From NCBI RefSeq assembly GCF_964355755.1, contig NC_092678.1, positions 3,426,422 through 3,490,421 on the forward strand: DNA of 64,000 nucleotides, read 5' to 3'. The notes beneath the pieces are model-generated. The model was not told the origin of the DNA, did not search any database, and saw only the letters and a list, made by a program, of their open reading frames with translations. A program made the translations under genes and the position numbers. Numbering within the stretch: position 1 is the first letter of the stretch; every line of letters starts with the position of its first letter. The DNA is from Antedon mediterranea. Taxonomy: Eukaryota; Animalia; Echinodermata. Shown here in pieces: positions 15,001-54,158 of this stretch.

Positions 15001-16133
15001 AATATTTGGGGTTTAATGGTATGGCACCCACCCTGCCAGAGAGAGGTTAAAGGTTCAACTCCTGTCACATGACCTATACTTATGAATTTGAATGTTTTGT
15101 TTAAAATGTAGCAGGGTTTTCATTGTGTGTGCTTATGTATAAAAATATTACAAGACATAATGAATATATAAGTTAAAGTAAATATTTTCTATCTCTCAAC
15201 CAGCATACGGATGCACATCGATTGCTCTTTGCCAAAGAGATTCCAACATATCGCAATCTTGTGGATTCCTTCTACAAGAGTATTCAGAATATGCGGGAAT
15301 TGGATCACATGGAGATGGAAAGACAAATGAAAGAAACATCAAACGTAAGATTCAATATCAATTGAAACAATTTTTAAAGGATAAACAACTTCAACTGGAA
15401 AAATTAACTTAAAAAACACACATTTTTATTTTAAAGATGTAGTGTCCCCAAAAACATGAAAAATGAAGATTAATAAAATCAGACTTTGAAGAGGTTATTT
15501 TGTAATTTTATAAGGTTTATCATTTCCATAGAAACAAAAACAACAATAAAAAAGACAAAATAAATTGTTAACTTCAACCAAAATCACATTTGCTGGCAAC
15601 CAATTTACTATTTTTTTGTTTTAAATTACATTGTTTTCAGGTAAATATTTTTTTTAAAACCAATTTTTGTCAAAGTGTGTAACAATTATGTGACAATAAA
15701 ATAGCATATTCAATAACAATTTTTAAAGAATTATATTTTTTCAGGAGGACAATACATTTTTAACATTTTCTGCTTGTTTTTCCTTTGTAGAAATTTCAAA
15801 GTATCTTTAGTAAAAAGAGTATACTGGACCATTTGTATTCTTATGCTAAGAGTTGCAATACAGAGGTGAGTATAAAGACATTTACTTATTACTTTGTTGT
15901 GACACAAAGATGACCCCTGACACAAAGGTGACCCCTGAATAGGTGTTTTTCTGTATTACATATGTACAGTACAAGCTTACAATAAGAAATAAGAACATTG
16001 CATTCAAATTCGGTGACTAATTAATATTATGATTTGTTTTCAGTTAAGTAAGGCTGTGGAAAATGATGACTCGTGCAGTAGAAGTCGGATCGGGTTCAGA
16101 CTGGAGCAAATTCCTTCTATGATGGGTACATAA
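97..16133 (+). CDS. PLXN: Plexin (semaphorin receptor), 5'-partial, multi-exon: PSI/IPT ectodomain, TM helix, split RasGAP-like domain with RBD
   Basis: GT-AG exons (approx.): 97-256, 762-858, 3133-3244 (PSI CSECVKGWEACRWCVEDNVC), 3923-4030, 4870-4959, 5284-5368, 5632-5795 (PSI DCSRC..CVWC), 6162-6329, 6596-6704, 6994-7129 (IPT PELGIQAGGTTVNING), 7426-7590, 7790-7874, 8341-8595, 8978-9121, 9445-9664 (TM), 9940-10072, 10360-10481, 10645-10709, 11309-11382 and 11601-11667 (VLRR-NEGVTEKLLSNW), 11940-12086, 12346-12499 (RBD VKVLSCDTINQAKEKILD), 13151-13254, 13424-13509, 13593-13693, 13999-14091, 14315-14480, 14825-14972 (RFWVTVINNP), 15204-15344 (LLFAKEIP), 15791-15865, 16044-16133 (stop TAA). 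The Sema domain must lie upstream of the window. Subfamily not assigned. Confidence 0.95.
6362..6515. repeat. 34-bp minisatellite (about 4.5 copies) in a plexin intron
   Basis: gtaatagagtatcccacaatgcaatgttgcactt at 6393, 6427 and 6461. Confidence 0.85.
10968..11282. mobile_element. Long-palindrome repetitive element in a plexin intron
   Basis: About 80-bp arms centred on cgaggcaaagccgag (10968-11140); a degenerate relative lies at about 14665-14800. Confidence 0.7.
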
Positions 16134-18136: not shown

Positions 18137-18533
18137 AACGCTTGGTTCTCACTAGAACGTAACGTAACGCAACCTACGCAACGTAAGAAAATGCCCTTTA
18201 AATAGGGCCTACTTGTGTTTGCCCCCGCTTGCGTGAAATCAAACCGATGTTTGCAGAACTGTTGCGTCGTCGGTTCACATTTGTCTAAAGCTTGGTTCCC
18301 ACTAGAACGTAACGCAAGGACGTAAACGCAACGCAAGCGTTTTAACCAATGACAAGCGAAGTTATAGACAGTTAGCAATCACAAGCGAATAAGCCATCGC
18401 TTGTGATTGGTCAATTCACTTGCGTTGCGTTACGTCCTTGCGTTGCGTCGCTAGTGGGAACCACGCTTACGCAACACAGCACTTTGCGTCAATACGTTAA
18501 TATTGCGTTGCGTCGCTAGTGAGAACCATGCTT
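18137..18533. mobile_element. MITE family B (TIR aagcttggttcccactag): one element with a second nested inside it (18288-18468)
   Basis: Outer ends cttggttctcactag / ctagtgagaaccatg enclose inner ends cttggttcccactag / ctagtgggaaccacg. Confidence 0.85.
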
Positions 18534-18941
18534 AAATAAACGTGGTTGTTTTCTTTCATCAGGCCCGAAAGACAACATTTATATAACGATCATTGTCAAA
18601 TTATCCGAAAAAATTTCTTTCAAAGAATCAAACGATGTAAGATTTGAGAAAACAGGTACTATGTTTATGTAGTCATAATTCTCATAGTGGTTAAGAGGTA
18701 GGCCTATTCTTTACACATGGTGGCCCAATTGATTAATACTTTATTATACTAGGGCTTAACATCAAATAAAAAAGCATTTGTAATATAAAGAACTTTATGA
18801 TACTTTTACAATTTATCAAAATTGTTTATATCTTATACGAGGAATACTTTCCCCTTATTTGGTTACAGCGATGTGAGCTGCCCCTGCCCAGCATTTTTAT
18901 AATGTTGTATTGTAGACGGTCTTCGATGCCTTTTTGAGAAT

Positions 18942-19123
18942 AATGCTTGGTTCCCACTAGCGACGCAACACAAGGACGTAACGCAACGCAAGTGAATTGA
19001 CCAATCACAAGCGATGGCTTATTCGCTTGTGATTGCTAACTGTCTATAACTTCGCTTGTCATTGGTTAAAACGCTTGCGTTGCGTTTACGTCCTTGCGTT
19101 ACGTTCTAGTGGGAACCAAGCTT
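18942..19123. mobile_element. MITE family B copy, inverted relative to 18288-18468
   Basis: Near-identical to the reverse complement of the inner copy. Confidence 0.88.
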
Positions 19124-19313
19124 AAAGCGTTACACGGGCAATTAAGCAATGTAGACAGTAGCCTGATCAAATCTCTATTTTGTTTTACTGTGTACTGAAG
19201 CATAATAATAACCTTCGCTGTTCTATTTTGTAAGAGGTAAAATGGTCACAGTCACACTCCAACACAGTTTATCCTCTACGTCCCTACTGATAAAATAGGA
19301 TAGTCGATGTTGC

Positions 19314-19385: not shown

Positions 19386-22300
19386 ATGAACCGACTTGCA
19401 GTAATTGTCTTGGCTGTGGCAGTTTTTGCTACTCTCGCCGAAGCAAAGAAATTTGCTAAAAAGGAGGAGGAGGTAGGCTTAAGTTCTTATAATTATCTTT
19501 TTCATTACTCACATGAACCATTGTATAGAGCCTATACTTACTGTAATCATCCACAAGGTTGATTACTGATACATTTTATTAATGTTTTCCTTTTTTTGTT
19601 CAGGGCCTCTCGAATGAACACTTGTGTATTGTTGAATGTAAGTAGTAAACTGAATCTAATACCTGTAATAATCATAATGATTTTGATCGCTGTTGAATTT
19701 CATTAATATAAAACTTGCTAAACATCGGAAACATTGCATACAATGAAGGTATTGCAAACGCCGAGATTAATTTATATATGTATATATATAGTAATATTAA
19801 TCAATAAAATATTAAACGTCTATTATTTTAATATATTTCCACAAACAAAACAAGCACAAAGATACAGATACAAAATTGCTTGCTTGTAGAATTAAAACAA
19901 AATAGACACTGAAATTATACAGTATAAAGAATACAGGCACGGTGATACAGGAGTATGCCTATTAACTTTATCTTCCTTCTAATATAAATAATGTCTCTCG
20001 GCACTATATATCCATTTATAGATTTGGGTATATTAGTTAGTTAGTTATCTTTTTGATTATATTATAAGATGATGCCCGTCCATTGGACGGGTAAATACTA
20101 ATAGGCCTATATATTATAATAATGATGATATTGAAAATAATGATGATGTTGAAAATGATGCTGCTGATGACGACGAAGATGGTGATGCTGTAATAAATAC
20201 AAAAACTTAACAAGCAAGTTTACTTTTTATCCAAGGCATGTGTAATGTATTTGACGAAGACAATAACGATTATCCAGTCGATTGTATGCCAAATGCATGT
20301 GAATATTCTGAAACACCTGAAAATTGTTGTAATGAAGATGAAGCCAATGGCTGGTTTTTCTATATTTCTGCTACGGGGGTGTGTTTTGATATCAAATGTC
20401 AAGGAAGTAAGTTTAAACATGAATTGTTCCATGGTTTAAAGATGAATTTACATGAAACTCGAACAAATATATATATATTTTAATTGCTCATACCAAAGAA
20501 TTATTTCTTGATGTGTCTAAAACTGTTTCTTCTCCCAGAAATTAATAGTGTTCACAGCTTTAACCAGTGTTTTGAATAATTTAACGAGTAATGTTTGTTG
20601 TCTTTGTTTTGTTGTTCTCTAGATGCTGCTGGCTGGGAAGAAGCATGTGGTAGGTATTAGGTATTGTTGTCAATAATATTAAAAGTCACGAAAGAAAATT
20701 TACGTCTTAAACGCCCATTAAATGTGCATGCCAGTGTAACTCCATCTATCAGGTTCAATATACATACTCCGAACGCTTATGGAAGTGTATTAGGCCAACG
20801 GTGGGTCATTGCGTTGTTCTCTCATGGCCCCCTCACTCTTTTTTCGACGGAAAACCCCAGAACTTGTTATACGTATTCTGTAGTGTTGTTTATTACTTCG
20901 ATACTGTGTACGTAATAAAAGGTTCTACTTGGCCAAGAGCTATTATTAATCTTCTAAAAAACATTACCAGTAGGCCTATCATTCCATTTGTTTTTTATGA
21001 TGTTGGTGAGAAGAATAGGCCTAATTTAGTAGGAAATAGATATATATATATATATATTTTGATATCGCATAAGCGACCATAACTATATTAATGTACAGCA
21101 ACGCCTACACTAGCAGATTCTCTTCGGGTAGTGTTTTCGGTGATGGGAAATTCCTTCTAAAACATCATCATACCACAACGTAGTCGTGATATGCAAATGG
21201 TTAATTATTGCTGAGGGCCTAAAGCTGAAGATTTACTAAGGTTCATACGAAGTTTTTAGTCGCGTGCAACTCGACTCTACAGCCCACTATGTCAGTCGGT
21301 TGGTCGGTCGGTCGTTAAATTAAGCCTAATACATAACTTGATGGCTTCGGTTATGTAGATCTACAAACCATAGTTAAAGTAAGTTAATATGCATTAGATG
21401 ATGTATTAATGTAAACATGTATGAAACTACGCTGATCATAATTGATGAAATAAAAGTTTTGGAAAAATCACAATAAAAAAAAGCTGAAATTAAATTAAAA
21501 TCATATAACGATGGCCAATAGAGCGTTTTCAAGTATGAAACGTCCGTTATGTCAATTCATTGTGCGGGGATATTGGGACGGGCTTTGCTCATCCTACCTG
21601 AACACAGTTTTGACGGTGCGACATCGTTTGACCTGACCTAGTTACGTCATTGGTCGTCGCAAATCGCAAGGTTTACCTCCTCAATAAGTAATATTATAAA
21701 GATGTTTTCTTTTCAATTAAAATTATATTAGGCCTATTTCATAATGATATTGAGCTTTTCACAAGATGAATATACTGTTTTTATTTTTTAAAGAATGTAG
21801 GAATGACATTGTCAACGGCGCAAATGGTACGTATGCTTTTATTTTTGTTTAATTTTTTTAACATCAAGTATTAATGGTTTTTTGCCAGTGACATGGAGAC
21901 GAGCATGAAAATATTAATACATTAATTCAATTTCAATATTGATATCCGTATCATAAATTTAAAGAAACCTTTTGTTAAACTGATTGATTATATTTACTTG
22001 AAGAGTATATACTTAACATTTTACGGCATCTTATAATATTAAATTTGAGTGTATTGTGACTGGATTTTGTGTGTGTTTTACTGCTATAATAAATATATTT
22101 ATTATTGATTGTTATACTTTTTTAAAGAAGGTTACATTTTCATAACTTCATATTTATTTTTGCTTGTTTTTTTGTTGCTAAAAATAAAGGGAATGAATGC
22201 ATTTCAATGTAAATTAAATGAAAGCTTGTTTATACAACGTAGAATTACAATACTAAAATAAGGCATTCTATGCAATATTAACATTATTATGATTAACATT

Positions 22301-23311
22301 TTCAAATTTCCAGTACAGGGGCAAATTAAGAAGACAACAGAATACATACAGTTATTGTAGCCTAACATAGATTACTCCTCTACATACATAATGCAAACAA
22401 GAGAAATAAACTCTGAATCATGTAGATTAATACATATTGTTATTCATAATATGATAGTTATTGTATTTGTTTAACTTTTTGGAATAAAAGATATCCTCAG
22501 TGCAGGAGATGATGAACTTCAATGTGGAGAAGGACAGGCTGGTGAAGATGAAGCGGGAGAGACTGACGAAGATATTGGTAAGACATTACTTTGTTTAAAA
22601 TAAATCATCATAAATCGCCCATAGATGGACAAACAGAAACAAGGGAGAAGTATTATTCTTTTTCCTTGTTTTTGTTTAAGCTTGGTTCCCACTAGAACGC
22701 AACGCAATAGTGCTGCAAACATCGATGGTTTGATTTCACGCTGGCGGGGGCAAACACAATGATTGGAAGGGCATTTTCTTATGTTGCGTAGATTGCGTTA
22801 CGTTGCGTCGCTAGTGGGAACCACACTTTATACGCATGCGAGGAAGAGGACCTGGTAAGGGTTCCACCTTTAAGCTTGGTTCCCACTAGCGACGCAACGT
22901 ATCGCAATCTACGCAACGTAAGCAAATGCCCTTCTAATAATTGTGTTTGCCTCCGCCTGTGTGAAATCAAACCTGCGATGTTTGCAGCACTATTGCGTCG
23001 TCGGTTCCCACTTGTGATTACGCATTCCATCACTCTGCGTCGATACGTCGCAGCGTTGTGCTCTAGTGGGAGAACCACGCTTTATAGGGTTACAGGAATG
23101 CCTATTATTTAATATTAATTAAATCAATAATATATTAAAATCTACCTTATTATCTGAAATAGATGAGAAGACTGCTGCTACTGCTAAGCGGGTAATGGCC
23201 AAAAAGAAGCTGATGGCTGCTAGACGCAAAGCAATGGCTAGCAAGAAATCGATGGCTAAAGAAAAGAAGCTGAAAGGTTTCATAGAGGCTTTCAAAAAAA
23301 GAAACATCTAA
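19386..23311 (+). CDS. Secreted precursor (about 195 aa): signal peptide, acidic 12-Cys core, basic Lys/Ala/Met-rich C-terminal tail; unknown family
   Basis: Exons 19386-19472 (MNRLAVIVLAVAVFATLAEAKKFAKKEEE), 19604-19637, 20236-20406, 20623-20649, 21794-21826, 22491-22577, 23163-23311 all have AG/GT borders and join in one frame (588 nt including TAA). TATA box about 70 nt upstream. Confidence 0.85.
22678..23082. mobile_element. Two adjacent MITE family B copies (22678-22828, 22872-23082) in the last intron of the first secreted gene
   Basis: aagcttggttcccactag ... ctagtgggaacc termini. Further copies at about 26197-26426 and 40037-40215. Confidence 0.82.
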
Positions 23312-25410: not shown

Positions 25411-26620
25411 AATAAGACGAACATCCTGATTATGGGTTTATTGAATGAAATATAAGATTTTTTTTTATAAAGTCATGATTATACAATTAATGCGAGTATC
25501 GATATAGTTAACTTCAATTATTGAGACATGGAATGAATAAACACCAAATCTACCTTTAACTAAGCTTATAACAAGTTACTATTTGTTGGAATGTGTTGGT
25601 TTATAATTGGTGTACGTTTTGAATGTATAAACACAGAGAAATTAGTATGGTAAATAATCTCTTTTGCTTGATTAATTCCAACAAGGAGTGTGCGTTTTCT
25701 TTAGGCCTACGTTGTTTCTTTTGACAACCACCAGTAAACGGATGCATAAAGTGGTTTATCATGCGTGCTAATATTAAGTGTTTTCAATTTTTCGGTTGAA
25801 ATAGGCCATATGTTGGTATGAATACATTGGAATGTGATTATATTTAGTTAGATAGTAATTTAATTTCGGTCAATTAATTCACAATATCATATCTGACTGT
25901 TTTCATTTGCCACACCTGTAATTTAATATAGGCTAGTGGATCTTGCCCAATCTGACATGAACCATGTATTGAATACTCATACTGGATGAAAACAAGAACA
26001 ATACACGTTTGGAAGAATTAATTTTAACGTTCAAATTTGCCCAAATATGAAAATGTTATGTCGGCCTACCACCCAACTAAATATGTTCTGTATTCAGTGT
26101 GACTCACCCTACACTGTGAAAACAAGCGTCTTTAAAAATGGACGCGTCACTGAAAATAAGAAAATACTATAAACCTATTACCTTGATTCCTACTAAAGCT
26201 TGGTTCCCACTAGAAACGCAACGTAAGTGCGTAACGCAACGTAAATTATTTGACCAATCACAAGCAATGAACATTCAAACTGTCGCTTGTCATTGGTCCA
26301 CTCGCAAGGACGTAAAGCGCAGCGCAAGGAATTTGACTAACCACGACGTAATGTAATTGAGTGTAAACTTAACTTAACTTGTGCTTACGTCATTGTGTTG
26401 CGTCTAACAAGTGGGGGAACCAGCTTAAATGTGTTCATGGCACTGTCTGTAACGTGGAGTACCAAGTTGTCTACACTCAACATACTTGGATTTCTTTTAT
26501 GTTAACTTGTTTACAGTGACAAACGTAAACATTTTTTATGTATATTATACAATTAATACGGTATATAATCTAGTATATGTATTAAAATACGGCGCTGATT
26601 CGCCTGTACAGCGTATGCTT

Positions 26621-27159: not shown

Positions 27160-30100
27160 ATGAACCGAGTCGCAGTCGTTATCTTGGCTGTGGCAGTGAT
27201 TGCCACACTCATCGAAGCAAGACCAAATCTTGCTAACAAGTTAAAGGTGAGTTATCCTTCTATTTTTACCGTTAGTGGGAATATCTTTTCTGTCTTTTTT
27301 ATTTGTTTGTTTGTATTATGCATTACATCGTGATGTAAATCTAAACATTGATAATGTTACTCTATCATCTAAACAAATATCCTTTTCTCGCTAGCTACCT
27401 GCTGATTGTTAAAAGCGCTTTATTGATATGACTACATCAATAACATACTCGCATTTCTAGTGTATTGTATTAAATCATCAAAGTAATATTGATACTAAAC
27501 ATACAAAGTAAAATACGTGATTTCCGGATTTTGAAAAAACTAACGGGAAGCTTCGATTATATTCCGTACTATAATAGTTTGGTTCATCGAGTGCACTCTG
27601 TAGAATTTGTGTTTTGTGTTTAATATACACCGAGTGTAACCGATGGAGGAACTCTCACGCAAAGAAACATTACAAACTAGGAAGGTATAATGAGGCATTC
27701 TATATACAGGTGTAAACTGTCATGCCACTCAAAGAAAACCCAAATTTGTGACTGCTTTTCTTTCGGGAGGGTATACTGTATTTACAAAAAGATTTTATAA
27801 AATAAAGCAAACTATTTATGCTTATATTTTTTGTTTTCAGAGTAAACGTGGAAAGAAATTACTAGAAAGTAAGTTTTAACCAAAATGGCACCATTATCTT
27901 AAAATTAATGTTCATTAAACAACCTATTAATATTTAAATAAATCACAAGACTCTCTAATGGTAAAAATGTAACATCTGTATTTAGAAAGAAAATGTATAC
28001 TTGTCTCATTTTGAGGCATTAGGTTCTGTCTCATGACATAAATCAAGATTTACCAATGCCCTGTTGACTGTAAAACAAACAACTTAACAATTTCTACGAT
28101 GAAATTAATTGATAAAACATTTTTAAATAAAAGGTTTATAAAAGATTCCAATACAAATACAACAAATAATGATGAAAAATATTATTTTAATAAGCTACCT
28201 TCTTGGAAATATTTTGGAGGCCACTAGAAATAAAATCACTAAATTATGTAACAACTATAGTAAAAATCTAAACATTTACATATTATTAAAAAAGGAATTG
28301 ACAATTTTTTTCTCAGTAATAAAGACCCCATTTTCTTTGATCTTAAATCCAATGATGTCTATCTATTAAATTCTGAGAACTGTGACGCCTCTAACGTCGA
28401 GGAAACTTCGCGACATCTAAAGATAAGAATCCATAAGAGTAGGGATTAAAATACACATATAGTACAAAGATATTAATTAGTAATAATAGAGAATTGTCTA
28501 GATCACAAAATACTTACCTGTATAAAAATGTAAGACCGTATTTCATTGCAGTGATGATGTTATTCGGCGTAACAACGAAACATTTTTGCTAACATTTTGT
28601 CATAACTCAAGTTTTCTTTTAATGTTGCTATGCTTTCGAAAGTTCGGAAACATTATTTTACATTACTTTAAACACTTCGGTGTCAATCAAAGACTTACAA
28701 ATGTTGGAAAAGCTCTTGAAAATCAAGTAAAAGCAGCTGATGTAAAATACATTCAAATAAATATTGTTATTGTTTTTTTTATAGTTTCTCAGAGAAAGAA
28801 AGAATGTAAGTATACAAAAATAGTTACCTTCAATTCAGTTTGCATTGAAGAATGCACCAATAATGATTTTCAAAAGCAGCATAAAACTGAATTAGTTAAA
28901 GACATATACAATCTTGTTATATTATTAATTGTTAATATTTTTTAATTTGTTATAATAATAATTATTAATTTCGCTAAACTAAACAATGAATTTTCTTCAC
29001 GTTTCTTGAATGCTGAACTATAAATTATTCTGATACTTAATGATTTGATTATTTTTTTTAAAACTTAAAGTAGCCGAGAAAAAAGATGTTTGTAAGTATA
29101 TCTTCTTTTTATTTATTGTTCTTATACAATCCGCAAAAATCAGAATAATAAACAATAATAAGCTTTATTTATTCATGGACACTTAACTCAACTAAAAGTT
29201 GTTTTTCAGTATGTAATAGAATGGTATACATCAACTTTTTGCGCTCGTATTTTAACGTACGTGCATGTTGCGTTTGCGTGGATTTTTAAAATTTAAATGT
29301 CTGTGAAATTTTATTTATCACAAAGGTCATCTATAATTCATGACGAAATTAATTTTAGCTTGAAAGTAAAGTTATTTGTGATTATTTTTATTTTGATTCT
29401 TTTAAGAATGTTTCCAACCTAGGCCTAGTTGTTTAGTATTTTTGAAGTTTATAATTTAAAAAAAAAAAATGTATGTGACATTTAAAGGATGATAAGGCTA
29501 ATTTAAAATAAAACGTGCTTTTTATGGTGTTAAATATAGGCTAAACATTGATTGTTTGGTGTCGTTTGTTAACACACTTTTATAGTGAATAAAAGAATAA
29601 ATAATATTATCAAAGAACTTATGATATTATCTACTTGCATGGGCAAGTGATCTGTTATTGTATTGTCAAATTCTATCTTAGCATTGGATCTACTGTATTA
29701 TACTGATTATTTTTACTGGAAGTTTTTTTAGACGGCCCTTGACAAATGTTCGAATTTCCACGCCACAAGCCGTGAAACCCCCAGGACTTATGACACAAAT
29801 TATGATAACATGTTTTGATTATGAAATTTAAAATTAAATTTGATTATGATTATTTTCACAGGGAGCGATGACGACTTCGATCTTGGTAAGTCTTTAACAC
29901 ATTTCCACAATGTTTATTTAAATCTATATGAAGTAGGGTAAAAGAATGCACAATAATAAAGTTACTTTAAAATAAAAACGTGTTTTATATTATTTCCAAA
30001 GATGACAAAAAATAAGTTTATTAACTCAAATTTCATAGTGATAATTAATTATAATAATTAACCTGCAAGTGATGCTACCGTATTGTTGAATAGATGAAAA

Positions 30101-33100
30101 TTATAAATATTGTGGAATGATGAATTTTATTAAAGGTAAACGTTCTTCCTAGATGGCGTATGGTATAACAATCACAAACAATTTCATGATAAATAAATTA
30201 GGCATAAACATTAAAAAAATATATTGTTAATAATAACTTACTTCGTATACCATATCCATAGAGTTATTTCTTTATCATCAAACTCATTCCAAAATTTTGG
30301 GATATTGTTGGATAGTGACATTTAAAGGATGATAAGGCTAATTTAAAATAAAACGTGCTTTTTATGGTGTTAAATATAGGCTAAACATTGATTGTTTGGT
30401 GTCGTTTGTTAACACACTTTTATAGTGAATAAAAGAATAAATAATATTATCAAAGAACTTATGATATTATCTACTTGCATGGGCAAGTGATCTGTTATTG
30501 TATTGTCAAATTCTATCTTAGCATTGGATCTACTGTATTATACTGATTATTTTTACTGGAAGTTTTTTTAGACGGCCCTTGACAAATGTTCGAATTTCCA
30601 CGCCACAAGCCGTGAAACCCCCAGGACTTATGACACAAATTATGATAACATGTTTTGATTATGAAATTTAAAATTAAATTTGATTATGATTATTTTCACA
30701 GGGAGCAATGAAGACTTCGATCTTGGTAAGTCTTTAACACATTTCCACAATGTTTATTTAAATCTATATGAAGTAGGGTAAAAGAATGCACAATAATAAA
30801 GTTACTTTAAAATAAAAACGTGTTTTATATTATTTCCAAAGATGACAAAAAATAAGTTTATTAACTCAAATTTCATAGTGATAATTAATTATAATAATTA
30901 ACCTGCAAGTGATGCTACCGTATTGTTGAATAGATGAAAATTATAAATATTGTGGAATGATGAATTTTATTAAAGGTAAACGTTCTTCCTAGATGGCGTA
31001 TGGTATAACAATCACAAACAATTTCATGATAAATAAATTAGGCATAAACATTAAAAAAATATATTGTTAATAATAACTTACTTCGTATACCATATCCATA
31101 GAGTTATTTCTTTATCATCAAACTCATTCCAAAATTTTGGGATATTGTTGGATAGTGACATTTAAAGGATGATAAGGCTAATTTAAAATAAAACGTGCTT
31201 TTTATGGTGTTAAATATAGGCTAAACATTGATTGTTTGGTGTCGTTTGTTAACACACTTTTATAGTGAATAAAAGAATAAATAATATTATCAAAGAACTT
31301 ATGATATTATCTACTTGCATGGGCAAGTGATCTGTTATTGTATTGTCAAATTCTATCTTAGCATTGGATCTACTGTATTATACTGATTATTTTTACTGGA
31401 AGTTTTTTTAGACGGCCCTTGACAAATGTTCGAATTTCCACGCCACAAGCCGTGAAACCCCCAGGACTTATGACACAAATTATGATAACATGTTTTGATT
31501 ATGAAATTTAAAATTAAATTTGATTATGATTATTTTCACAGGGAGCGATGACGACTTCGATCTTGGTAAGTCTTTAACACATTTCCACAATGTTTATTTA
31601 AATCTATATGAAGTAGGGTAAAAGAATGCACAATAATAAAGTTACTTTAAAATAAAAACGTGTTTTATATTATTTCCAAAGATGACAAAAAATAAGTTTA
31701 TTAACTCAAATTTCATAGTGATAATTAATTATAATAATTAACCTGCAAGTGATGCTACCGTATTGTTGAATAGATGAAAATTATAAATATTGTGGAATGA
31801 TGAATTTTATTAAAGGTAAACGTTCTTCCTAGATGGCGTATGGTATAACAATCACAAACAATTTCATGATAAATAAATTAGGCATAAACATTAAAAAAAT
31901 ATATTGTTAATAATAACTTACTTCGTATACCATATCCATAGAGTTATTTCTTTATCATCAAACTCATTCCAAAATTTTGGGATATTGTTGGATAACGTTT
32001 TTAAATTTAAACTTTTCAATATTTTCTGGTATTATGCGGTAATTAATATTTAATTGTGTTATCGACAAAACAACATTTTTTCTATGCTTATACCTTTTAA
32101 ATAAAAAATCCAATACTGTTCAATCGAATTAAAAGATGGGCCATATATAACGATTATACAATAATTATAAAACGTAATGATATAAGTTAATTTGAATTGT
32201 TTATGATTATTTTCACAGGATCGTTGTCCGATATTCCCGGTAAGTCAGATTTTTATTGTATCTAAATTAGGTCTATCTATACAACCACAACAGCGACATT
32301 TAGCAAAGTTTATGTCAAATAACTGCCAGACACATTCTTTGTAAAATGATCGGGTTAACGATACATTCACCCACGGAAATGGAAGAAACTATGATTACTT
32401 TCACATATTTTCCGTCACATATGTCATAACGTAGCTTAAGCAAAAAAACAAAAAAAATGTTAGTGTACCATTTTTATGCATATTAGGATATACTGATAAT
32501 AAAATTATTTATTTAGGTTCTTTCAAAGATGTTTAAACTGTCAATAACTTACTAAGATTAGTTGTATGTACTTAATTGTGTTAAACTACTGTGGAGTAAC
32601 TATGCGTCAGGGAGTTAATTTGTAAATACATTGAGAACAAGTTGTTCTTCGGTTGGACGCAAACCCACGACCTCCAGTGTTCTCAATGTACTTAGTATGT
32701 ATTTCAATGTTTATTGAGAGACCTCTAATAAATTTATCAGCATCTTTCAATTTGTTTAATAATAATAATATCATGGATTTATATAGCGATATATATATAA
32801 ACCAAATCGAAGTAAGGGGATACGCATTCGTCGCTAACCAGGGATCGGTCTAATTGAACTCCGGTTTAAAGGACCTAGATCTAAATTAGAATAACGATCG
32901 TTTTGAGGCAAATCAGTAAAGTAACAGTAAAACTGTACATGGAGTTAATTTTTATTAATTATTTAAATAAAGACTACTGTTGCACACATAATTGTAGCAC
33001 GCAGACGGCTATGTTTGTTGTAATATTCAATTGACTTTTCAGTGACGTGCATCCATTACATTATAATCGTGTTATGTTGTTCAATACGACCATTACTTAT

Positions 33101-33803
33101 TATCATTTTCTCTCTATGTTATTATGTTATGTAATACATCTATCGAATCAAAATTTGTTAAACCATTGAGAAAAACTATTTGTTTTTTCTCCATGGTAAA
33201 CGCAACGTGAACTTATGGACAAGATGAGTTTGCATATTGTTTACAGTGACAATAAATCCATATACTTGAAAAGCATCAATAGATTTTTAAAAGATAGCAA
33301 AACTGATTAGTTTGAGACATGCGTATACAATCTTTCGTTATAGGCAGCATATATTGCTAATTTTATTTTTGTTTGATTAATCACTGTTAATTTATATATA
33401 TACATTATCTTCACGTTTTAAAAGCTGAAATTTACATTATATTTTTACGTAATAAAAGTCATTAATATAATAATCTGATAAAATTGGTTTATGATTTTAC
33501 AGAAAATGCTTTGAGGCAGTCGCGAAGTCAGCCATTGTATTTAAAAAAAAAATTTTTGTGCCACTGTCGCCAATAATTAACAACGTTCGATTAAGTATAT
33601 AATTTTCCATTACTTATGAAACCGCCGGCGTGTGAATGTAGATTTTACTATTTATTTAAAAAATAACTACTGTTTGTTTGTTCGTTAGAAAATTCCCATT
33701 TATAAAATAGCAACTGTTAAACCACCATGTGATAAAGTTAATTAAAATAAGAAATTTCAGGGCCGTGGATGAACGTAATGTAGGCAAAAAATGAAATGTA
33801 TCC

Positions 33804-33835
<32 letters not shown>

Positions 33836-34544
33836 GTATTAGTGTTATTATTATTATTATTATTATTGAGGGGCACATTCATTGAAATAAGAAAATGAAT
33901 TGAAAGTGTTAAAAGTTAATTTGTAATAAATGTTTTTTATATTACTTTCACAGGTAAGTATTTCAGTATGTCCATACTGTAGTGTAAGCAACATGAAATG
34001 AAATGTAACTATCTCTTATGCCTATTATAGATTTTTAAAAAGTTTTAAAATGTCGTGTAGCCTATTAATATTATTAATATTATTAAGGGACCTATTCATT
34101 GAAATAAAAAATTATTGAAAGTCATAAAAGTTAATTTGTAATAAATGTTGTTTATATTACTTTCACAGGTGAGCAGTCGTACTCGTGTAAGTATTCCACG
34201 CATTTCCATACTGTAGTTTAAGCAATACGAAATGATATGTTACTATCGCTTATGCCTATTATAGATAAAAAAAAGAAGTTTGAAACGCAATGAAATGTTG
34301 GGTATCCTATTATTATTATTATTATTATTATTATTCTGGGGCCTATTCATTGAAATAAAAAATGAATTGAAAGTGATAAAAGTTAATTAACTATACCAAC
34401 TGAACAGCTAGGCTCCTCTTATATTATTTAATTGATTAATTCCTGTCACCCATTGATGTTTCTTCGTTTCGTATTGTTTATTTGACCAGCATATTTTAAT
34501 AGATCATTTCATTGAAAATGAATATGACACATAATACTCATAGC

Positions 34545-34611
<67 letters not shown>

Positions 34612-37600
34612 CGAGGGGCCTAACAATTATGGATGAATCTTCGAACTGTGATTGTGATTGGTGAATTCACTTACACGCATGCTAAAGCTTTAAAGTTTTA
34701 CCGAAAAATTACACAATAATTTATAATAATCAGAAAATCAAATAATCGTCCAATCAAATTACAGATTAGTCATGCGTCATAATAAATAGATACAATTGTT
34801 TTCATGTTGTATATTGATCTGTCAACTGATGAGTAAACAATAATGAAATATCATTAGATCGTTAATAATACGACTTGGGGCAAGCTTAACGCAAATGAGC
34901 CAGTTGAACCCCTCATGTTAAATAAAAACATAAAAAAGGAAAACAAAAGTAATTAATAAAATAAATTTAAAAAATGTAATTTCTGACTTTGTACTATTCC
35001 ATCATTTGTTCTTGAAAATGGATCCATTTTTTTATTATATTGTAGGCCTAAATGTTTTGTATTATTATATCTATGAAATCAAAATCTGATAAAATTGGTT
35101 TATGATTTTACAAAAAATACTTTGAGGCAGTCGTGAAAACATTTTTGTGGCACTTTCGCGAATAATTACAACAAATGAGTTTCTATTACTTATCAAACCG
35201 GCGCCATGTGAATGCATTTTGCTATTTATTTAAAAAATATTAAATTTATTAATATATGTAATACTATTTTTGGTTCGTTAGAAAATTCCCCTTTGTTTTA
35301 AAATTTTTATTATCGTTTTGATAATGATTTACCTTCAATAATTCAGGTTGCATATTGTTTACAGTGAAAGTAAATCCAGATACTTGAAAAGCATCAATAT
35401 GATTTTGAAAAGCTAGCAAAACTGATTTGTCTTGGACATGCGTATATAATCTTTCATTAGAGCGGCATAAAGCCTACTGCTAATTTTATTTTTATTTAAT
35501 TAATAATTTTAATTACCAGTTTCACTGTTAAAAAACATTTATATACATTGTCTTCACGTTTTTGAAAGCTGAAATTGACGGTACATTATATTTTTACGTA
35601 ATAAAAAAGAGTCATTAATATATATTTTTTACATACAGTAGCCGAGGACAAGAAGACCTGTAAGTATAGTCTATTTTATTGTGGCTTTATATGAACATTA
35701 AAACTTTGTTTGAATGTAAAATTTTTGTAGGCCTAACATTTTTAACTAAATTTTGAACTAAATATATATAATTTAACTTTCACATGGTCGTCATCCTGTT
35801 CTTAGTATTTTAAGTCATGTTTTAAGGGTCTTTCATACCTATTTCGGCACAGTTCCGGTAAGTATTTCACGCATGTCCATACTGTAATGTAAGCAATACA
35901 AATGAAATGTAACTATCTCGTATGCCTAGTAGTATAGATAAGTTTAAAAAGTAATGTCGAGTATCCTGTTATTATTAAGGGGCCTATTCATTGAAATAGT
36001 AAATGAATTGAAAGTGATAAAAGTTAATTTGTAATAAATGTTGTTTATATTCTTTTCACAGTGGGCTTGGTGTGGTTGTGTAAGTATTTCACACATTTCC
36101 ATACTGTAGAGTAAGCAATACGAAATGTAGGCTAACTATCTCTTATGCCTATTATAGATAACAAAGTTTAAGACGTAATGTCGAGTATCCTATTATTATT
36201 GAGGGGCATATTCATTGAAATAGAAAATGAATTGAAAGTGATAAAAGTTAATTTGTAATCGATTTTGTTTATATTACTTTCACAGTTGACTCGTACTTTT
36301 CGTCATGGTTGTGTAAGTATTTCACGCATTTTAATACTGTAGTGTAAGCAATATGAAATGAAATGTAACTATCTCTTAGTATAGATAAAAAAGTTTAAAA
36401 AGTAATTTCGAGTATCCTATTATTATTGAGGGGCCTATTCATTGAAATAGAAAATTAATTGAAAGTGTTAAAAGTTAATTTGTAATAAATGTTTTTTATA
36501 TTACTTTCACAGTAATACTGTAGTGTAAGCAATATGAAATGTTATTGTTACTATCTCGTATGCCTATTATAGATAAAAAAAGTTTGAAACGAAATGAAAT
36601 GTTGAGTATCCTATTATTATTATTATTATTATTGAGGGGCCTATTCATTGAAATAAAAAAATATTCAAAGTGATATGTAACTATCTCATATGCCTATTAT
36701 AGATAAAAGCGTACAATGATTTAAAATAAAATGGGGTTTATATTATTTTCATAATAATTAATTTATGGAATTCGGACTAATGAGATTATAATTAAATTAT
36801 TAACCTGTATGGGAGATTGATCCATATTGTCAAATTATAACTTAGCAATTGTTACCGATTATTTTTTACTAACGGTTCCATTTCTTACGAGGCCTTTTGA
36901 TAATTGTTTTGGCTTCTGCCACTGTAACCTATGAAATCTCCTGAATTTTCTACACAAATAAACTTGTGAAAAATATCATAACATTTTTGATAAGGAATAA
37001 TTTGAAATAAGTTGTTTTATGATTTTTTTCCACAGCGGAACAGCCTCCTGTCCGTAAGTTTTTAACACAACAAAAGTGACATTTTATCATGGTTCTAAAA
37101 TAACGTAAAATGAAAATGGGGTTTATTTTATTTTCATAGAATAATTAATTTATGAAATTCGGCCTAATGAGATATAATTAAATTATTAACAACTTGCATA
37201 GGCGATTGATCCATATTGTCAAATTATAACTTAGCAATTGTTACCGATTATTTTTTACTAACGGTTCCCTTTCTTACGGGGCCTTTTGATAATTGTTTTG
37301 GCTTCTGCCACTGTAACCTATGAAATCTCCTGAATTTTCTACACAAATAAACTTGTGAAAAATATCATAACATTTTTGATAAGGAATAATTTGAAATAAG
37401 TTGTTTTATGATTTTTTTCACAGCGGAACAGCCTCCTGTCCGTAAGTTTTTAACACAACAAAAGTGACATTTTACCATGGTTCTAAAATGAACGTACAAT
37501 GAAAATGGGGTTTACATTATTTTCATAGAATAATTAATTTATGGAATTCGGCCTAATGAGATATAATTAAATTATTAACAACCTGCATGGGCGATTGATC

Positions 37601-40600
37601 CCTATTGTCAAATTATAACTTAGCAATTGTTACCGATTATTTGTTACTAACGGTTCCCTTTCTTACGGGGCCTTTTGATACTTGTTTTGGCTTGTGCCAC
37701 TGTAACCTATGAAATCCCCTGAATTTTCTACACAAATGAACTTGTGAAAAATATCATAACATTTTAGATATGGAATAATTTGAAATAAGTTGTTTTATGA
37801 TTTTTTCCACAGCGGAACAGCCTCCTGGCGGTAAGTTTTTAACACAACAAAAGTGACATTTTACAATGCTTCTAAAATAACGTACAATGATTTAAAACAA
37901 AATAGGGTTTATATTATTTTCATAGAATAATTAATTTATGGAATTCGGCCTAATGAGATATAATTAAATTATTAACAACCTGGGCGAGTGATCCATATTG
38001 TCAAATTATAACTTAGTAATTGTTACCGATTACTTTTTACTAACGGTTCCCTTTCTTATGGGCCCTTTGATAATTGTTTTGGGTCTATCGAATAAAAACC
38101 TGTTAAACCATGGAAGACAAAAATCTTATGATTGATGAATTCACTTACGCGCAAGCTCAAGTTTTATCGAAAAATGACATAATAATTAATAACTATTATT
38201 GTTGTATTAAAAAAAAAAAGGTTTTTAAACAAAGTTATAATAATACTATATTATCATAATATTAATATTTTCTTTTTACAGTTCCGAACAAGAGGAATGA
38301 TGGAGGTAGGTTCACCGCGTTTATAAATATAAACTATTTTTCTTCCATGTTATTATGTAATACATCTATCGATTAAAAATCTGTTAAACCATTGAAGTAA
38401 AACATATTTTACTCCAGTATTTTTTACTGTCCTAGTCAAACATTAACGGAACTTATTTAAACTTCAGAAAATTAAAAAAAAGTAACAGATTAATCATTCA
38501 CGATAAATATATACTATTATTTTCATGTTGTATAATTGTTCTGTCAACTGATAATGTAAACAATAATGAAATATCATTAGTTTGTCAATACTCATGTAAT
38601 ATTTATCATAATTCATAATCAGTAAAATGATAATAATTCATTTTGAATTTTTTTTATATACGAGAAAACTTAAACTGCATAAGGCATTATGGTAAAATGA
38701 TAATAATTCATTTTGAATTTTCTTTATATACGAGAAAACTTAAACTGTATGAGGCGTATAATAATGATAATTATTACACTTTTGTTTACAGGTTTTGTTT
38801 ACGAAGGCAGCGGCGATGGTAAGTTGACGTTTTTACTGTTCTTCTGTTCATGAACCGCTTCCTAACTTATTTTCTGAAACATATTTTATCAACTGATAAA
38901 AAAATATAATAAATTACTTATAAATGTGATTTTTTAAATGTTGTGGGGAAAGCATCATTATGTTTGAATATAATTAATAATACAGGCTGAATAAATTAAA
39001 ATAAAATAAATTTGATTATATTGTAAACAAGTTATTAGAAAAATCACAGATTTATTACTTTAACTATATACAAACTTAAAACAGATTTTAAAGAAACCTT
39101 ATTATTAATAAATCCAATTACAAGATGCGCATGCGTCATATAATATATACTGTTATAATCACTTAACAATTACAAGATTGCTAATGTAAGTGTAATTCAA
39201 TATATTTTCGTAATACCATTACAGTATTAAGTTTTACTATAATAAATAATACAGGTTTAGTACTGTAATAATAATTTATTAAAAATCAAATCAATAAAAT
39301 ATAAAATAAATTGTACCTGCAATGTATGTATTATCATATCATGTTATATATCTTTTTATATACGAGAAACTTAAACTGCACGACGCATAATAATAATTAT
39401 TAAACTGTTGTTTACGAAAGCAGCAGTTGCTGTTCTTCTTTTCATTATTCCGGCTTAGTCCTGTTACTAACAGTACTAACAGTAAATTTATAATTAATAC
39501 ATTTAAAATATAACACAATTATGCTTGAACTTGAAACACAGAAATGTGTGGATACAAAATTATCTTGTAATATGTTGTATTATTACCATTACCTATTGAA
39601 TAAATCTTATTGAACTTTAGAACATTGAACCAATACCTCATACCTCATTGCTAATGTAATATAATATAAATAAAATATTTTTGTAATAGTATCATTATAT
39701 TTGACATAATTACTAGTTCAGTATAGTAATAATAATTTTTTATTGTTCTCATAAAAAAATTAAATATACCTGAAATTGATGTATTATTAATAGCATGTTA
39801 TTTTAATTATAATTCTTTCACACACTATTTTTTTTTTTACAGTTTTTGTTGATGAAGGTAAGTTTTAAAACAGAATTTATCCCCAGCTTCATGAACAGTT
39901 TTTGTTTTGAATGAGTTATACGATTGAAATAACAAACAAAATGGTATTTGGCACTGTTTATGCACTGATTCTGCTTACTGTAGGCTTATTTCACGCTTGG
40001 TCGCAATGCAAAGACGTAAGCGCGCCGCAAGTAATTAAGCGTGGTACCCACTAGCGACGCAACGCAAGGACGTAACGCAATGCAAGTGAATTGACCAATC
40101 ACAAGCGATGGCTTATTCGCTTGTCATTGCTAACTGTCTATAACTTCGCTTGTCATTGGTTAAAACGCTTGCGTTGCGTTTACGTCCTTGCATTACGTTC
40201 TAGTGGGAACCAAGCTTTAAGGGATGGATATTGTTTGCATGTGACTTTTATTTATCCATAAGAAAGAATTACCAAGTATAAAAACATCAATATGACAGAA
40301 TGAAATATGAACATAAAGGAAGGCGAGAAAAACTACATGCCTATCGAGCTCAACTTCCAAAATTAAAAAAAAAAGAAATGACATTTCTTTTAGAATATAT
40401 CAAGCAAATCATGTAAGAATTAATTAATATCAAAGTGCAGTAGTTATTGAGTATAATGCTTTATTTTTTTTAACTTTTTAGATGTTCGAGATGGTTCTGG
40501 CATGGGTAAGTTAAAAACTTTATTAATACTATAAAATGTTTATTGTAGTTTTTTTTGTCTTGTGTGAGTTCATCTCACGTTTATTTAAATTCTCATTGAT

Positions 40601-42964
40601 GAATATATTATATACATATAGGTAAGTTTTATTGTAGTTAGTGATAATTCATTATTAATCAAAGTAAATCGTAAGTACGAATATTTAGCAATTTGTACGC
40701 CCTGCATCCACTCCACATCCAGTAGGCTTATAAACAGTTCCATTAAACTGTTTTAAACTTTATTGATATCTATCATGTTTATAATTAGGCCTAAAATAAT
40801 TGTGTGTGTTAAAAGCTTTAACAAAATCAACAAAATCAAATTACAAGCTGCGCCGTATAGATACTATATAATAGTCATGTTTTCTTGTAATTTATTTTTT
40901 GCTGGTGGTATGGTACTATACTTTTACTTCTAAAATATACACTTTTTAAATTATTATTACCAATAAAAAAGAGAAGTGGGTGTTTCTTTTTCAGGAAGTT
41001 GACATATATGATTTATCTGATAATGATACAGTCAAATAATAATGTTAATAATTGTGTTGAATTGACATTATCATAATATAACCATGTTATTTGTTTTTTA
41101 TTATAGGTGATATGGAGGAGAGGGATGATGGTAGGTTTATGTTTTTTTTATTACAGTATATAGTTTTAGACGGTTTTGGGGTTTTTTCTTCTTATAAATA
41201 CTATTTGTTATCATGTTGTAAAATTGCTCTTTAACTGATAAGGTAAACAAGAATAAAATATTATTAGTTTGTCAATACTAATATTTACCATAATTATTCA
41301 ATTAAAAATCAATTTTATTTCATTTCCACATAGTTTTTGTATACTAATTTGTAGATGCAGTTTAAATAATGTAGTTGACTAATGTTTCATAAAGTAGTAA
41401 TGATTTTGAGAGTTTATTATTTTCGTATTTTAACAAAGAAAACAGATTGAAAACTATTGATATCAAATATATTTAATGTTTAAATTTAGAAAAGATTGGT
41501 TTGGTATGGGCTCGATAAGTTGATTTAAAACAAATACGAAGCGCTTTTTTCTGTAATTTAAAAAGATGGTCCAACTTTGTAGTTACCGTAGTAGTCCATG
41601 GCCATTGGAAATGTTTATTTGTAACAGTTCCCCATAACAAGTTACAATACGACAAATACGGAAAGAACCATGGTATTATAATGAAAAAAGAATATTTGTT
41701 GTTAAACTATATTTTTCTCATTGCTCCAATATTTCTTGATTTTTAGTTAATTGCTGTTTCAAGTTAAATTGGGTGTCAATTGTGATTCTAAGAAAATTTA
41801 AATGTTGTTTTTCTTTAATTAAAAGATTATCAATTTTGATTTTAAATTATTATTCCCTCGGACGTGTCTTCTGTCACTTAAAAAATATAAACGTTTGTTT
41901 ACAGGCAACGTTTCCACTGGCGACGACGCGGATAGTCACGGCAAGTTTGATTTTTTTAACTGTTTTTCTTTTCCCGAGCCACTTATGAACTTCTGAAATA
42001 TAAATTGTATTTTACCAAAAATAACTGTAATTTTCAATATATTTTCGCGATTGTATATTTAGGTTTGAATAATATTATAACTTAAAAACCCAAGTAAATC
42101 CAACTTCCAATTTATATTCTGTATTTTATTTACTCATTTGTTTTTGAGAATGGTTCCATGATGGTTCCGAAACGTCGATCTTTTTTCATAATTCCGGTTC
42201 AGTTCTGTAATAATAATTTTGAATTGTTGATTTGTATGCCCACCTCCACCAACAACAGGTTTCAATTTTTGCAAGTTAAATTTTACCTTAAATTGTTTTT
42301 ATTACTTGGGTAAAATGTTATATATATTATCAAAATATACAAACAGAAACAGTTCAATGAACATACTTGGCCGAGATTAAATGTTAGTTGCCATGTGCGT
42401 CATAATAAATTAATATTGACCAATCACAAACTGAACTGTTGCTTGTGATTCGTCAACTCATATTGTGTTTTGCCTACCTCATTGAGTTGCGTCCAGTTAT
42501 ATGTAAGCGTTAACAGCTCATCAATTAAAAAAATGTTGCTTGTAATTTGTGTCAAATATGACAAAAAAACATCGTGAAAAATAAAATTGTCGGTAACTTA
42601 TATTTTCATTTCAAATTAAAAATAATCCTTCGATTTATTTTGAATATTACAAAATTATAATTTTAAACATCTTTAATAAACAATTAAGTTTATTAGGACA
42701 TCGATTGATTTAGATTGGGTGGAAAGTGTAATATTGTCACATTATTGTAAGAGGTTACGTTATTTATTTGTATACTTATACTTGATATTAATAGGCAATG
42801 TAATAGGCAACAAGAAGACAAAGAAGGTTGCTCGTATGTTGGCGGCTAAGAAGATGATGGCGGCTAAGAAGATGATGGCGGCCAAAAAGGCGTTGGCTTC
42901 AAAGAACTTGCTGAAAGAGTTGGCTAAGAAGCGAGCCATGACCAAAGCCCTCAAGAAAAACTAA
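27160..42964 (+). CDS. Microexon-built secreted protein (about 235 aa if all exons are used), paralog of the 19386-23311 gene
   Basis: Exon 1 27160-27246 (MNRVAVVILAVAVIATLIEARPNLANKLK) and exon 2 27841-27868. Then 19 phase-1 exons, all multiples of 3: 28785-28805, 29071-29091, 29862-29885, 30702-30725, 31542-31565, 32219-32239, 34169-34186, 35639-35659, 36062-36079, 36286-36312, 37036-37053, 37424-37441, 37813-37830, 38282-38305, 38792-38818, 39843-39857, 40482-40505, 41107-41130, 41905-41940 (GC donor). Last exon 42795-42964 (KKVARMLAAKKMMAAKKMMAAKK...). The full join has no stop codon. Confidence 0.82.
29475..31994 (+). repeat. Three tandem 840-bp copies, each carrying one 24-nt microexon
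   Basis: Line-by-line identity at period 840; the only differences I found are at 30707 and 30712. Confidence 0.95.
33780..36705 (+). repeat. Family of about 225-bp intronic units (ggggcctattcattgaaat...ttactttcacag [exon] gtaagtatttcac...) in two clusters, with interspersed (ATT)n microsatellites
   Basis: Units recur near 33870, 34087, 34338, 35978, 36202, 36429 and 36635; (ATT)n tracts at about 33805, 34311 and 34547-34610. Confidence 0.85.
36710..38085 (+). repeat. About 3.5 tandem copies of an approximately 388-bp unit carrying the 18-nt EQPP(V/G) microexon
   Basis: Exons at 37036, 37424 and 37813 (spacings 388 and 389); the flanks are nearly identical. Confidence 0.92.
40037..40215. 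mobile_element. MITE family B copy in an intron of the microexon gene
   Basis: aagcgtggtacccactagcgacgc ... ctagtgggaaccaagctt. Confidence 0.85.
41400..41760 (-). mobile_element. Degenerate LINE (L2/CR1-group) reverse-transcriptase C-terminal fragment
   Basis: PYLSYCNLLWG...LFKLQKKALRIC..YRAHTKPIFSK is typical of the end of non-LTR ORF2; it is frameshifted. Confidence 0.75.
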
Positions 42965-43379
42965 AAGGGCATTAATAGCAAAGATACAAGAATAAAGTGT
43001 ATTTGATTGATATATGTTTAATCATTGGTGAATGGTGATGGGACCTTTAATATATAGGCCTACATTTATTCTGGCCACATTCGATATTCTTTCATCCTTA
43101 AGATAATATTTAACAACTTACATGTTTTAAATTGAGTTTATTTTTACAAAGTGTATTCATTATACACAGAAAGAGTGATATTCATGGAAACTTGTGAAAA
43201 TAACAATAAGAATAAAAACAACATTTTTAAATATGTACTATCTTATCTTTTAATAAACTTTATGCAGGCATTAATACTTTGTGTATATTGTTTTTCTAAA
43301 TTATGTGTACAATAGAACGACTTACAAATTGTGTATTTAAAGAGCAGGCAAAAAAATGTGCATGTTTGAGGGTGGGGAA

Positions 43380-48751: not shown

Positions 48752-49655
48752 TGCCTCTTGTTCATCCTTTTTCTTTTCATTCCATGTTTTTGATGGTCTG
48801 CCTCCTCTTCTTTTTTTTTCATTCCATGTTTTTGATGATCTGCCACCTCCTTCTTTTCTTTTCATTCCATGTTTTTGATGGTCTGCCTCCTCTTCTTTTC
48901 TTTTCATTCTATGTTTTTGATGGTCTGCCTCCTCTTCTTTTCTTTTCATTCCATGTTTTTCATGGTCTGCCTCCTCTTCTTTTCTTTTCATTCCATGTTT
49001 TTCATGGTCTGCCTCCTCTTCTTTTCTTTTCATTCCATGTTTTTGATGGTCTGCCTCCTCTTCTTTTCTTTTCATTCCATGTTTTTGATGGTCTGCCTCC
49101 TCTTCTTTTCTTTTCATTCCATGTTTTTGATGGTCTGCCTTCTCTTCTTTTATTTTCATTCCATGTTTTTCATGGTCTGCCTCCTCTTCTTTTCTTTTCA
49201 TTCCATGTTTTTCATGGTCTGCCTCCTCTTCTTTTCTTTTCATTCCATGTTTTTGATGGTCTGCCTCCTCTTCTTTTCTTTTCATTCCAAGTTTTTCATG
49301 GTCTGCCTCCTCTTCTTTTCTTTTCATTCTATGTTTTTGATAGTTTGCCTCTTGTTCATCCCTTTTCTTTTCATTCCATGTTTTTCATCGTCTGCCTCCT
49401 CTTCATCCCTTTTCTTTTCATTCAATGTGTTTCATAGTCTGCTAGGCCCCTTCATTCCTTTTCTTGTCATTCCATCTTTTTCATGGTCTGCCTCTCCTTG
49501 TTCATTCCTTTTTTTTTCATTCCATGTTTTTCATGGTCTGCCAACCTCTTCTACATTCCTTTTCCTTTCATTCCATATTTTTCATGGTCTGCCTCTCCTT
49601 TGTCCATTTTCTTTTCATTCCAAGTTTGTTATGGCCTGCCTCTTCTTCGTCCCTT
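48752..49655. repeat. 42-bp minisatellite, about 20 copies with degenerate ends
   Basis: Unit ttttcattccatgtttttgatggtctgcctcctcttcttttc; it generates the MKRKEEEADHQKHG and PPLLFFSFHVFDGL ORFs. Confidence 0.95.
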
Positions 49656-53700: not shown

Positions 53701-54158
53701 AATTGTACTGATAAAATTTTATTAAACTTTTCCTGTACAAATAAAGCATTAAATTGTTTAATTTTTTCACCTTTTGCCTTCTAACAGGATGTTAAACTAC
53801 CATGCTACATCACATCAAGTCTGTTTGTGATTGGTTGAATTGTGAAGTTTACTCATTGATGCGCGACTCTAATTTATGAACTTTGAGCATTAAATGCTGT
53901 GCAGAATGTATTTTTGTTTGACAATACTTTGAAAATACTGCTATATTTGGTTTACCGGTTTGATATGCATTTGTAAGACGTGATTTGAGATACTGTACAT
54001 ACTGCAACCAGAATACATTGTCGCTATTGTGTGAACAATTTTGAGCGATTTTTATTTCACATGGCTGACAACTTTTAAATTTGCACGGGTTCCTGCATCC
54101 AAGTGTTCTCATCGAAATACTATCTGTTTCTTTCGCATGATAAATAACACTAAAGGTA

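Follow-up and report, generated by a model that had tools for sequence, protein, structure and literature searches.

The layout of the locus presented here is best known from the micro-exon genes (MEGs) of schistosomes. In two papers on them, the coding region of these genes consists mostly of very small symmetric exons, with 10–20 exons per gene, a signal peptide, and a fast-evolving mature part (PMC4350168; bioRxiv 10.1101/2023.06.21.545858), and MEGs "appear to be restricted to platyhelminths" (PMC4350168). Such an architecture is usually explained as a way for a parasite to answer the immunity of its host; if a free-living echinoderm offered a clean case, the MEG layout would prove to be a general route to variable secreted proteins. 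Here, we analyzed a 64,000-nt stretch of the crinoid Antedon mediterranea (NC_092678.1; hereafter, the window), with exons predicted from genomic sequence, and found a gene with 19 predicted microexons (m1 to m19; Table 1), which is very probably real and spliced through microexons. The best explanation overall, to which we assign a probability of roughly 55%, is that the gene encodes a likely secreted protein with a fixed frame and a replaceable microexon middle, which probably grew as intron-exon units were copied in tandem and is likely subject to exon skipping.

Joining exon 1, exon 2, m1 to m19, and the last exon gave 235 codons with no stop. The microexons are 15–36 nt long, and 19 out of 19 are both multiples of three and in phase 1-1; among the introns of the gene, 20/21 are in phase 1. 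The acceptors are CAG (15), TAG (3), and AAG (1), and the donors are GTAAGT (16), GTAGGT (2), and GCAAGT (1). The G+C content is 51% in the microexons versus 27% in the introns, and several microexons carry stops in their other frames. A preliminary description of this DNA had listed 19 tiny segments with an acceptor and a strong, mostly GTAAGT donor, all multiples of three, in phase 1-1 and stop-free when joined. All of them were found in place and the 235-residue frame is open, with two amendments to that list: exon 2 is in phase 0-1 and so is not symmetric, and the 19th segment lies at 41905–41940 and has a GC donor. The same description had claimed that nearly any subset of exons stays in frame, except for a TGA at the exon starting at 32219. 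Indeed, when exon 2 and the exons after it are joined in pairs, 208 of the 210 joins are stop-free and only m1-m6 and m2-m6 make a stop (TGA in both cases); the subsets of m1 to m19 that stay free of stops number as many as 499,712. The pairwise count shows that skipping would be possible, and no more than that.

The abundance of in-frame microexons was compared with chance using a generic rule-based scanner that had not been tuned to the listed exons. At its strict setting (an exact GTAAGT or GCAAGT donor and at least 12 pyrimidines), 10/11 candidates on the plus strand inside the gene had a length divisible by three, and 10 were listed exons. The controls gave 0/1 on the minus strand of the same interval, and 0/3 and 1/3 outside this gene and its paralogue (see below), for an overall comparison of 10/11 inside the gene versus 1/7 elsewhere. 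At the loosest setting, the values were 28/49 inside the gene versus 1/13, 24/70, and 19/49 in the controls. Tandem copies are not independent, so the count inside the gene is inflated; the contrast with the controls holds despite this inflation.

The 3′ end of the gene is present in five sequencing runs, none of them recorded as RNA; run X1 was guessed to be RNA, and four of the five were compared over 38100–43340. The X1 contig (701 nt) matches 42794–43340 and stops matching precisely at the last acceptor, where 84 of its letters remain, whereas in X2, X3, and X5 contigs extend across the last intron to 42157. The end of the X1 contig fits the last exon spliced to a microexon, as a spliced transcript would look. 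If the aligner end is exact, the one-base overlap of the match fits m3 to m6, m13, m15, m17, m18, or m19 as the partner, and it fits neither of the first two exons nor any of the remaining ten microexons. Direct joining of exon 1 or exon 2 to the last exon had been named in the preliminary description as an observation that would speak against a microexon gene; this single contig fits a microexon partner instead. The depth of X1 was 70.5 on the last exon and below 1 in several intron bins, with 10.6 in the m19 bin versus 14.5 needed if the 70.5-deep contig covered it, and 10.2 in the m18 bin versus 9.7 needed. Skipping of m19 could be the cause, but the DNA-like runs also have extra depth in the m18 bin, due to dispersed repeats, 85 letters equal m19, m18, m17, and one further letter, and the values rest on parts without cover; we draw no conclusion from them.

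The gene has a tandem paralogue in the window, which, like the four dead exon copies discussed below, the preliminary description had overlooked. The seven paralogue exons (87/34/171/27/33/87/149 nt), once joined, correspond exactly to the RefSeq protein. The two genes have the same 87-nt first exon and the same intron phases, 15 of the first 20 residues are identical, and the basic tails show about 46% identity over 39 amino acids; the 27- and 33-nt exons of the paralogue are also symmetric (phase 1-1). Conversely, the paralogue has four middle exons only, its product has an acidic middle with 12 cysteines and a net charge of −13, and the middles of the two genes do not align. The paralogue may encode the precursor of a secreted peptide rich in disulfides.

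A second relative has already been published. Aleotti et al. 2022 (PMC9793003) filed PCNP14 of Anneissia japonica (XP_033113992.1, LOC117114436, labelled isoform X2; exons of 87/154/45/45/45/134 nt) as a predicted neuropeptide precursor, with the entry N/A for Antedon and Florometra. In the portions of that paper cited here, PCNP14 is retained after signal-peptide filtering, the text names just the putative peptide SGPNG-amide without discussing the exons, and the authors state that the precursor status still needs testing. By eye, 14 of the first 20 residues are identical between the available PCNP14 sequence and the 19-microexon gene; the phase pattern is common to both, as is the 87-nt signal exon. 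The last exon opens with Gly-Asn-Val in both and the PCNP14 tail is rich in Lys and Ala, while its middle consists of three tandem-repeat, Trp-rich exons of 45 nt with a Ser/Tyr/Trp motif that, again by eye, resembles m10. The 19-microexon gene thus has the features of the PCNP14-like family, in which a signal exon of 87 nt (phase 0) is followed by an exon 2 in phase 0-1, middle exons in phase 1-1, and finally a basic exon. On this sequence comparison, it is a member of a small crinoid family with three known members, which have a common frame and almost wholly different middles. The RefSeq name of LOC117114436, "transcription elongation factor SPT6 homolog," is likely a low-complexity misnomer, and the introns of that gene (1–7 kb) might hide unannotated microexons.

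A search of the window for further family members found the one paralogue only. The Pfam search matched no family and the ESM Atlas gave no usable match. Among 1.84 billion representative proteins, the paralogue retrieved only itself, which is uninformative since the 19-microexon gene scores just E 7.9 against it. The last exon had no match among proteins of 98–2000 amino acids, a search whose word filter may lose matches and whose range excludes a 94-residue form of the product; in a local test, the expected score of a full-length copy was E about 1e−17. The claim that standard annotation misses the gene is in line with its apparent absence among the searched proteins, which is weak evidence. 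The locus suggests that further genes of this kind are missed in crinoid annotations.

As the preliminary description had proposed, the layout is MEG-like, which is borne out by exon sizes, symmetry, and the likely signal peptide. As in the schistosome genes described in the sources above, very small symmetric exons, within the range of 10–20 in number, make up most of the coding region (423/705 nt, or 64% if exon 2 is counted in), there is a likely signal peptide and a tandem paralogue, and the mature part changes faster than the signal (15/20 signal residues kept with respect to the paralogue, middles unalignable). Unlike them, the Antedon gene resides in a free-living deuterostome, shows no sequence relation to MEGs in searches that are weak for the PCNP14-like family, and ends in a conserved basic exon, predicted to be helical, that belongs to a crinoid family. 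Furthermore, alternative splicing and gland expression are established for MEGs in the cited accounts, whereas the Antedon gene is known from genomic sequence and one contig. The independent origin that had been proposed agrees with the crinoid genome and with the lack of a detected relation to MEG families. Our verdict is that the Antedon gene is a convergent MEG-like cassette gene and not a member of a flatworm MEG family. In the titles and abstract beginnings searched, no MEG-like echinoderm gene was reported; this search did not extend to the unhyphenated spelling "microexon" and so does not establish that none is in print. We also considered the vertebrate SCPP genes. According to the cited parts of two papers (PMC9122587, PMC3632108), these similarly encode secreted, acidic, modular proteins and combine a signal exon that is conserved with short symmetric exons that are repeated, but their introns are mostly in phase 0 and their proteins carry many Ser-x-Glu sites. 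With nearly all its introns in phase 1 (20/21) and a single Ser-x-Glu site, the Antedon gene was not assigned to this group.

The middle of the gene likely arose through tandem copying of intron-exon units, to judge from the repeats that it contains. There are three tandem families of such units, of 840 bp (three units, m3 to m5), 227 bp (m7, m9, and m10), and 389 bp (m11 to m13), and m2 and m8 form an older copy pair. Other copies look dead or decayed (Table 1). One, of the 227-bp family and in the longest intron, has zero length, with the acceptor directly followed by the donor; it may be a dead copy or possibly a recursive splice site, of which the CAG/GTAAGT site has the form. An intronic repeat pair (33480–33530 and 35090–35140) has an acceptor-like tract, with the AG intact in the first repeat and altered in the second, and no good donor downstream; these are possibly older exon relics. 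The locus presents every stage of exon turnover side by side, from new, near-identical copies through cores that have diverged within conserved introns to one copy of zero length and others in decay, and it offers a compact test case for the birth, recognition, and selection of microexons.

In two of the three repeat families, the exon cores have changed more quickly than the sequence that flanks them. The first and third 840-bp units are identical, and the second differs from them at two sites, both of which fall in the 24-nt m4 and change an amino acid; the chance of both falling in the exon is 0.0008 if differences are uniformly distributed. In the 227-bp family, the flanks are 88–89% identical and the cores 39–67% (Fisher p of 5e−6, 0.002, and 0.018, on pairs that are not independent). 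Selection on the exon cores would be the simplest reading of this contrast. Judged from the repeat units, the middle has certainly varied over evolution, through exon birth, exon death, and fast divergence.

The predicted product is likely secreted: by inspection and homology, residues 1–20 look like a signal peptide, with hydrophobic residues at 4–20. The full-length product is predicted to be mostly disordered, and the mature chain has charge blocks of +8, −28, and +18 (net −2), with single microexons contributing from +2 to −4. The basic tail is predicted, from the single sequence, as one helix with a predicted local distance difference test (pLDDT) value of 86.5. In cationic antimicrobial precursors, an acidic spacer is followed by a cationic helix of amphipathic character. 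An amphipathic antimicrobial tail was rejected here, as the hydrophobic moment of the helix was reached by 803 of 1,000 shuffles (972 of 1,000 for the paralogue); being non-amphipathic, the tail looks like a polyanion-binding anchor and not like a membrane-lytic peptide. Acid-flanked Ser-Gly is the consensus of glycosaminoglycan sites, and the two such sites in m15 and m17 could carry glycosaminoglycan.

We propose that the signal exon, the adaptor exon (exon 2), and the basic last exon would form the fixed frame, with the 19 microexons as the replaceable middle. With all middle exons symmetric, the frame survives when a unit is duplicated, deleted, or skipped, and the middle would thus act as a cassette. 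The basic helix would anchor the protein to polyanions, such as sulfated glycans in mucus, in matrix, or on microbes. Short variable motifs would be displayed by the middle, and exon skipping would also tune the net charge. That some microexons are skipped in some transcripts appears fairly probable. Fast change of the cores suggests an interface under antagonistic pressure and thus favors a coat of the body surface. The most likely role, which we infer with somewhat less than even confidence, would be in a secreted surface coat where the animal meets its environment.

Several points weigh against this explanation. No microexon junction was seen, and the transcript evidence is one contig from one run whose RNA nature is guessed; among the run contigs over 38100–43340, no second isoform was seen. 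Nearly all donors are perfect consensus, which would favor constant inclusion. As for selection on the cores, both m4 changes lie at CpG sites, which brings the chance to ~0.04 if changes are CpG-limited; the pairwise tests in the 227-bp family depend on each other and on the alignment; the 389-bp family has no clear core excess (0, 2, and 2 differences per 18 nt vs 2.6–4.7% in the flanks); and gene conversion among introns could produce the same contrast. Lastly, the putative surface-coat function was derived from sequence. A more far-reaching form of the idea, which we regard as possible but doubtful, is a MEG-type system that crinoids evolved independently, a family of secreted proteins in which a microexon middle between a fixed signal and a polybasic anchor would be reshuffled in each animal by combinatorial skipping and renewed by exon birth, death, and positive selection, for recognition or defense at the body surface. 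It is unlikely, in our judgment, that all microexons are constantly included and form a single protein of low complexity for a matrix or granules, possibly the core of a small proteoglycan, whose symmetric exons only reflect the duplications that survived. This would agree with the 16/19 perfect GTAAGT donors, with tandem duplication alone yielding symmetric exons, with the near charge balance and the two acid-flanked Ser-Gly sites of the full form, and with the 85 letters upstream in the X1 contig, which equal m19, m18, m17, and one further letter. Conversely, fast change of the cores is unexpected for a plain spacer, and the database label of the Anneissia relative, isoform X2, speaks for more than one form (the isoform difference itself was not seen).

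Listing of the homologue PCNP14 as a predicted neuropeptide precursor (PMC9793003), together with 14 dibasic positions, could indicate a precursor of neuropeptides or peptide hormones that is processed into short peptides at paired basic residues. We consider this improbable: the dibasic sites are mostly in the basic ends and do not flank repeated peptides, the middles of the three family members are largely unrelated, and the authors themselves, in the cited part, call for a test of precursor status. Moreover, SGPNG-amide is absent from the 19-microexon gene and its paralogue, with no counterpart in exon 2 of either, and this lack of conservation argues against the neuropeptide label, suggesting that PCNP14 itself is not such a precursor. 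Bindins offer an analogy for a basic tail that binds sulfated egg glycans, and fast exon divergence, a polybasic tail, and lineage-specific middles would all suit a gamete-recognition protein or another fast-diversifying reproductive secreted protein; the sequence matches no known family, and we give this analogy little credence. Least probable of all is that most of the microexons are splice-like motifs, accidental or dead, which tandem repeats in the introns have spread, and that the real mRNA joins the first two exons to the last. The resulting 94-residue short form is open and falls below the 98-residue limit of the protein search, dead copies are present, and the 840-bp units are near-identical, as in recent or mis-assembled repeats. 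The enrichment in lengths divisible by three over the controls and the G+C-rich cores tell against it, as do the frame that is open across 19 exons (several with stops in other frames), the symmetric middle exons of both relatives, and the X1 contig end, which does not fit exon 2 as a partner.

Table 1. Exons of the 19-microexon gene, its paralogue, and decayed exon copies (positions in the window)
Feature	Position	Strand	Length (nt)	Remarks
Exon 1	27160–27246	+	87	Phase 0; likely signal peptide (residues 1–20) and basic start
Exon 2	27841–27868	+	28	Phase 0-1 adaptor; 34 nt in the paralogue, 154 nt in PCNP14
m1	28785–28805	+	21	
m2	29071–29091	+	21	AAG acceptor, weaker; old copy pair with m8
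m3	29862–29885	+	24	840-bp unit 1
m4	30702–30725	+	24	840-bp unit 2
m5	31542–31565	+	24	840-bp unit 3
m6	32219–32239	+	21	Starts with GA, giving TGA if after m1 or m2
m7	34169–34186	+	18	227-bp family
m8	35639–35659	+	21	Old copy pair with m2
m9	36062–36079	+	18	227-bp family
m10	36286–36312	+	27	227-bp family; Ser/Tyr/Trp motif resembling the Anneissia 45-nt exons (by eye)
m11	37036–37053	+	18	389-bp family
m12	37424–37441	+	18	389-bp family
m13	37813–37830	+	18	389-bp family
m14	38282–38305	+	24	Donor GTAGGT
m15	38792–38818	+	27	Ser-Gly with acidic flanks
m16	39843–39857	+	15	
m17	40482–40505	+	24	Second Ser-Gly
m18	41107–41130	+	24	Donor GTAGGT
m19	41905–41940	+	36	GC donor; corrected position
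Last coding exon	42795–42964	+		Lys/Ala/Met-rich tail, net +18, predicted single helix
Likely 3′ untranslated region	42965–43340	+		Wholly covered by the X1 contig, which has 48 letters past its end
Zero-length copy, 227-bp family	33954–33959	+	0	CAG acceptor, then GTAAGT donor directly
Candidate exon	35853–35857	+	5	Lies ahead of a donor of the 227-bp family; its use would break the frame (stop at codon 184); probably a relic
Acceptor-only copy, 227-bp family	36495–36524 (36513)	+		Without exon core and donor
Decayed copy of the m15 unit	39350–39470	+		Deletions break acceptor and donor
Tandem paralogue, XP_071960554.1	19386–23311	+		4 kb upstream; RefSeq "uncharacterized protein"; exons 19386–19472, 19604–19637, 20236–20406, 20623–20649, 21794–21826, 22491–22577, 23163–23311

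A small inverted-repeat element resembling a miniature inverted-repeat transposable element is present in very high copy: one copy lies at about 40020–40220, inside the 19-microexon gene, and others lie in and around both genes, near 18140–18520, 18940–19125, 22680–23080, and 26195–26420. Its summed depth in the runs is thousands of times the single-copy level. Upstream of the paralogue, a plexin-like multi-exon gene extends over about 1000–15400 on the plus strand, with one exon matching the PSI domain of Plexin-B. Downstream, an SH2-domain gene (RefSeq XP_071961566.1) lies at about 53800–57771 on the plus strand, and the open frame 57100–57768 is 100% identical to an Antedon mediterranea RefSeq protein. 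An exon with a Kazal protease-inhibitor domain was found at 61612–61860 on the minus strand. Two tandem arrays, at 48769–49652 (42 bp, 20 copies) and 60722–61429 (46 bp, 15 copies), contain long low-complexity open frames and are probably non-coding minisatellites.

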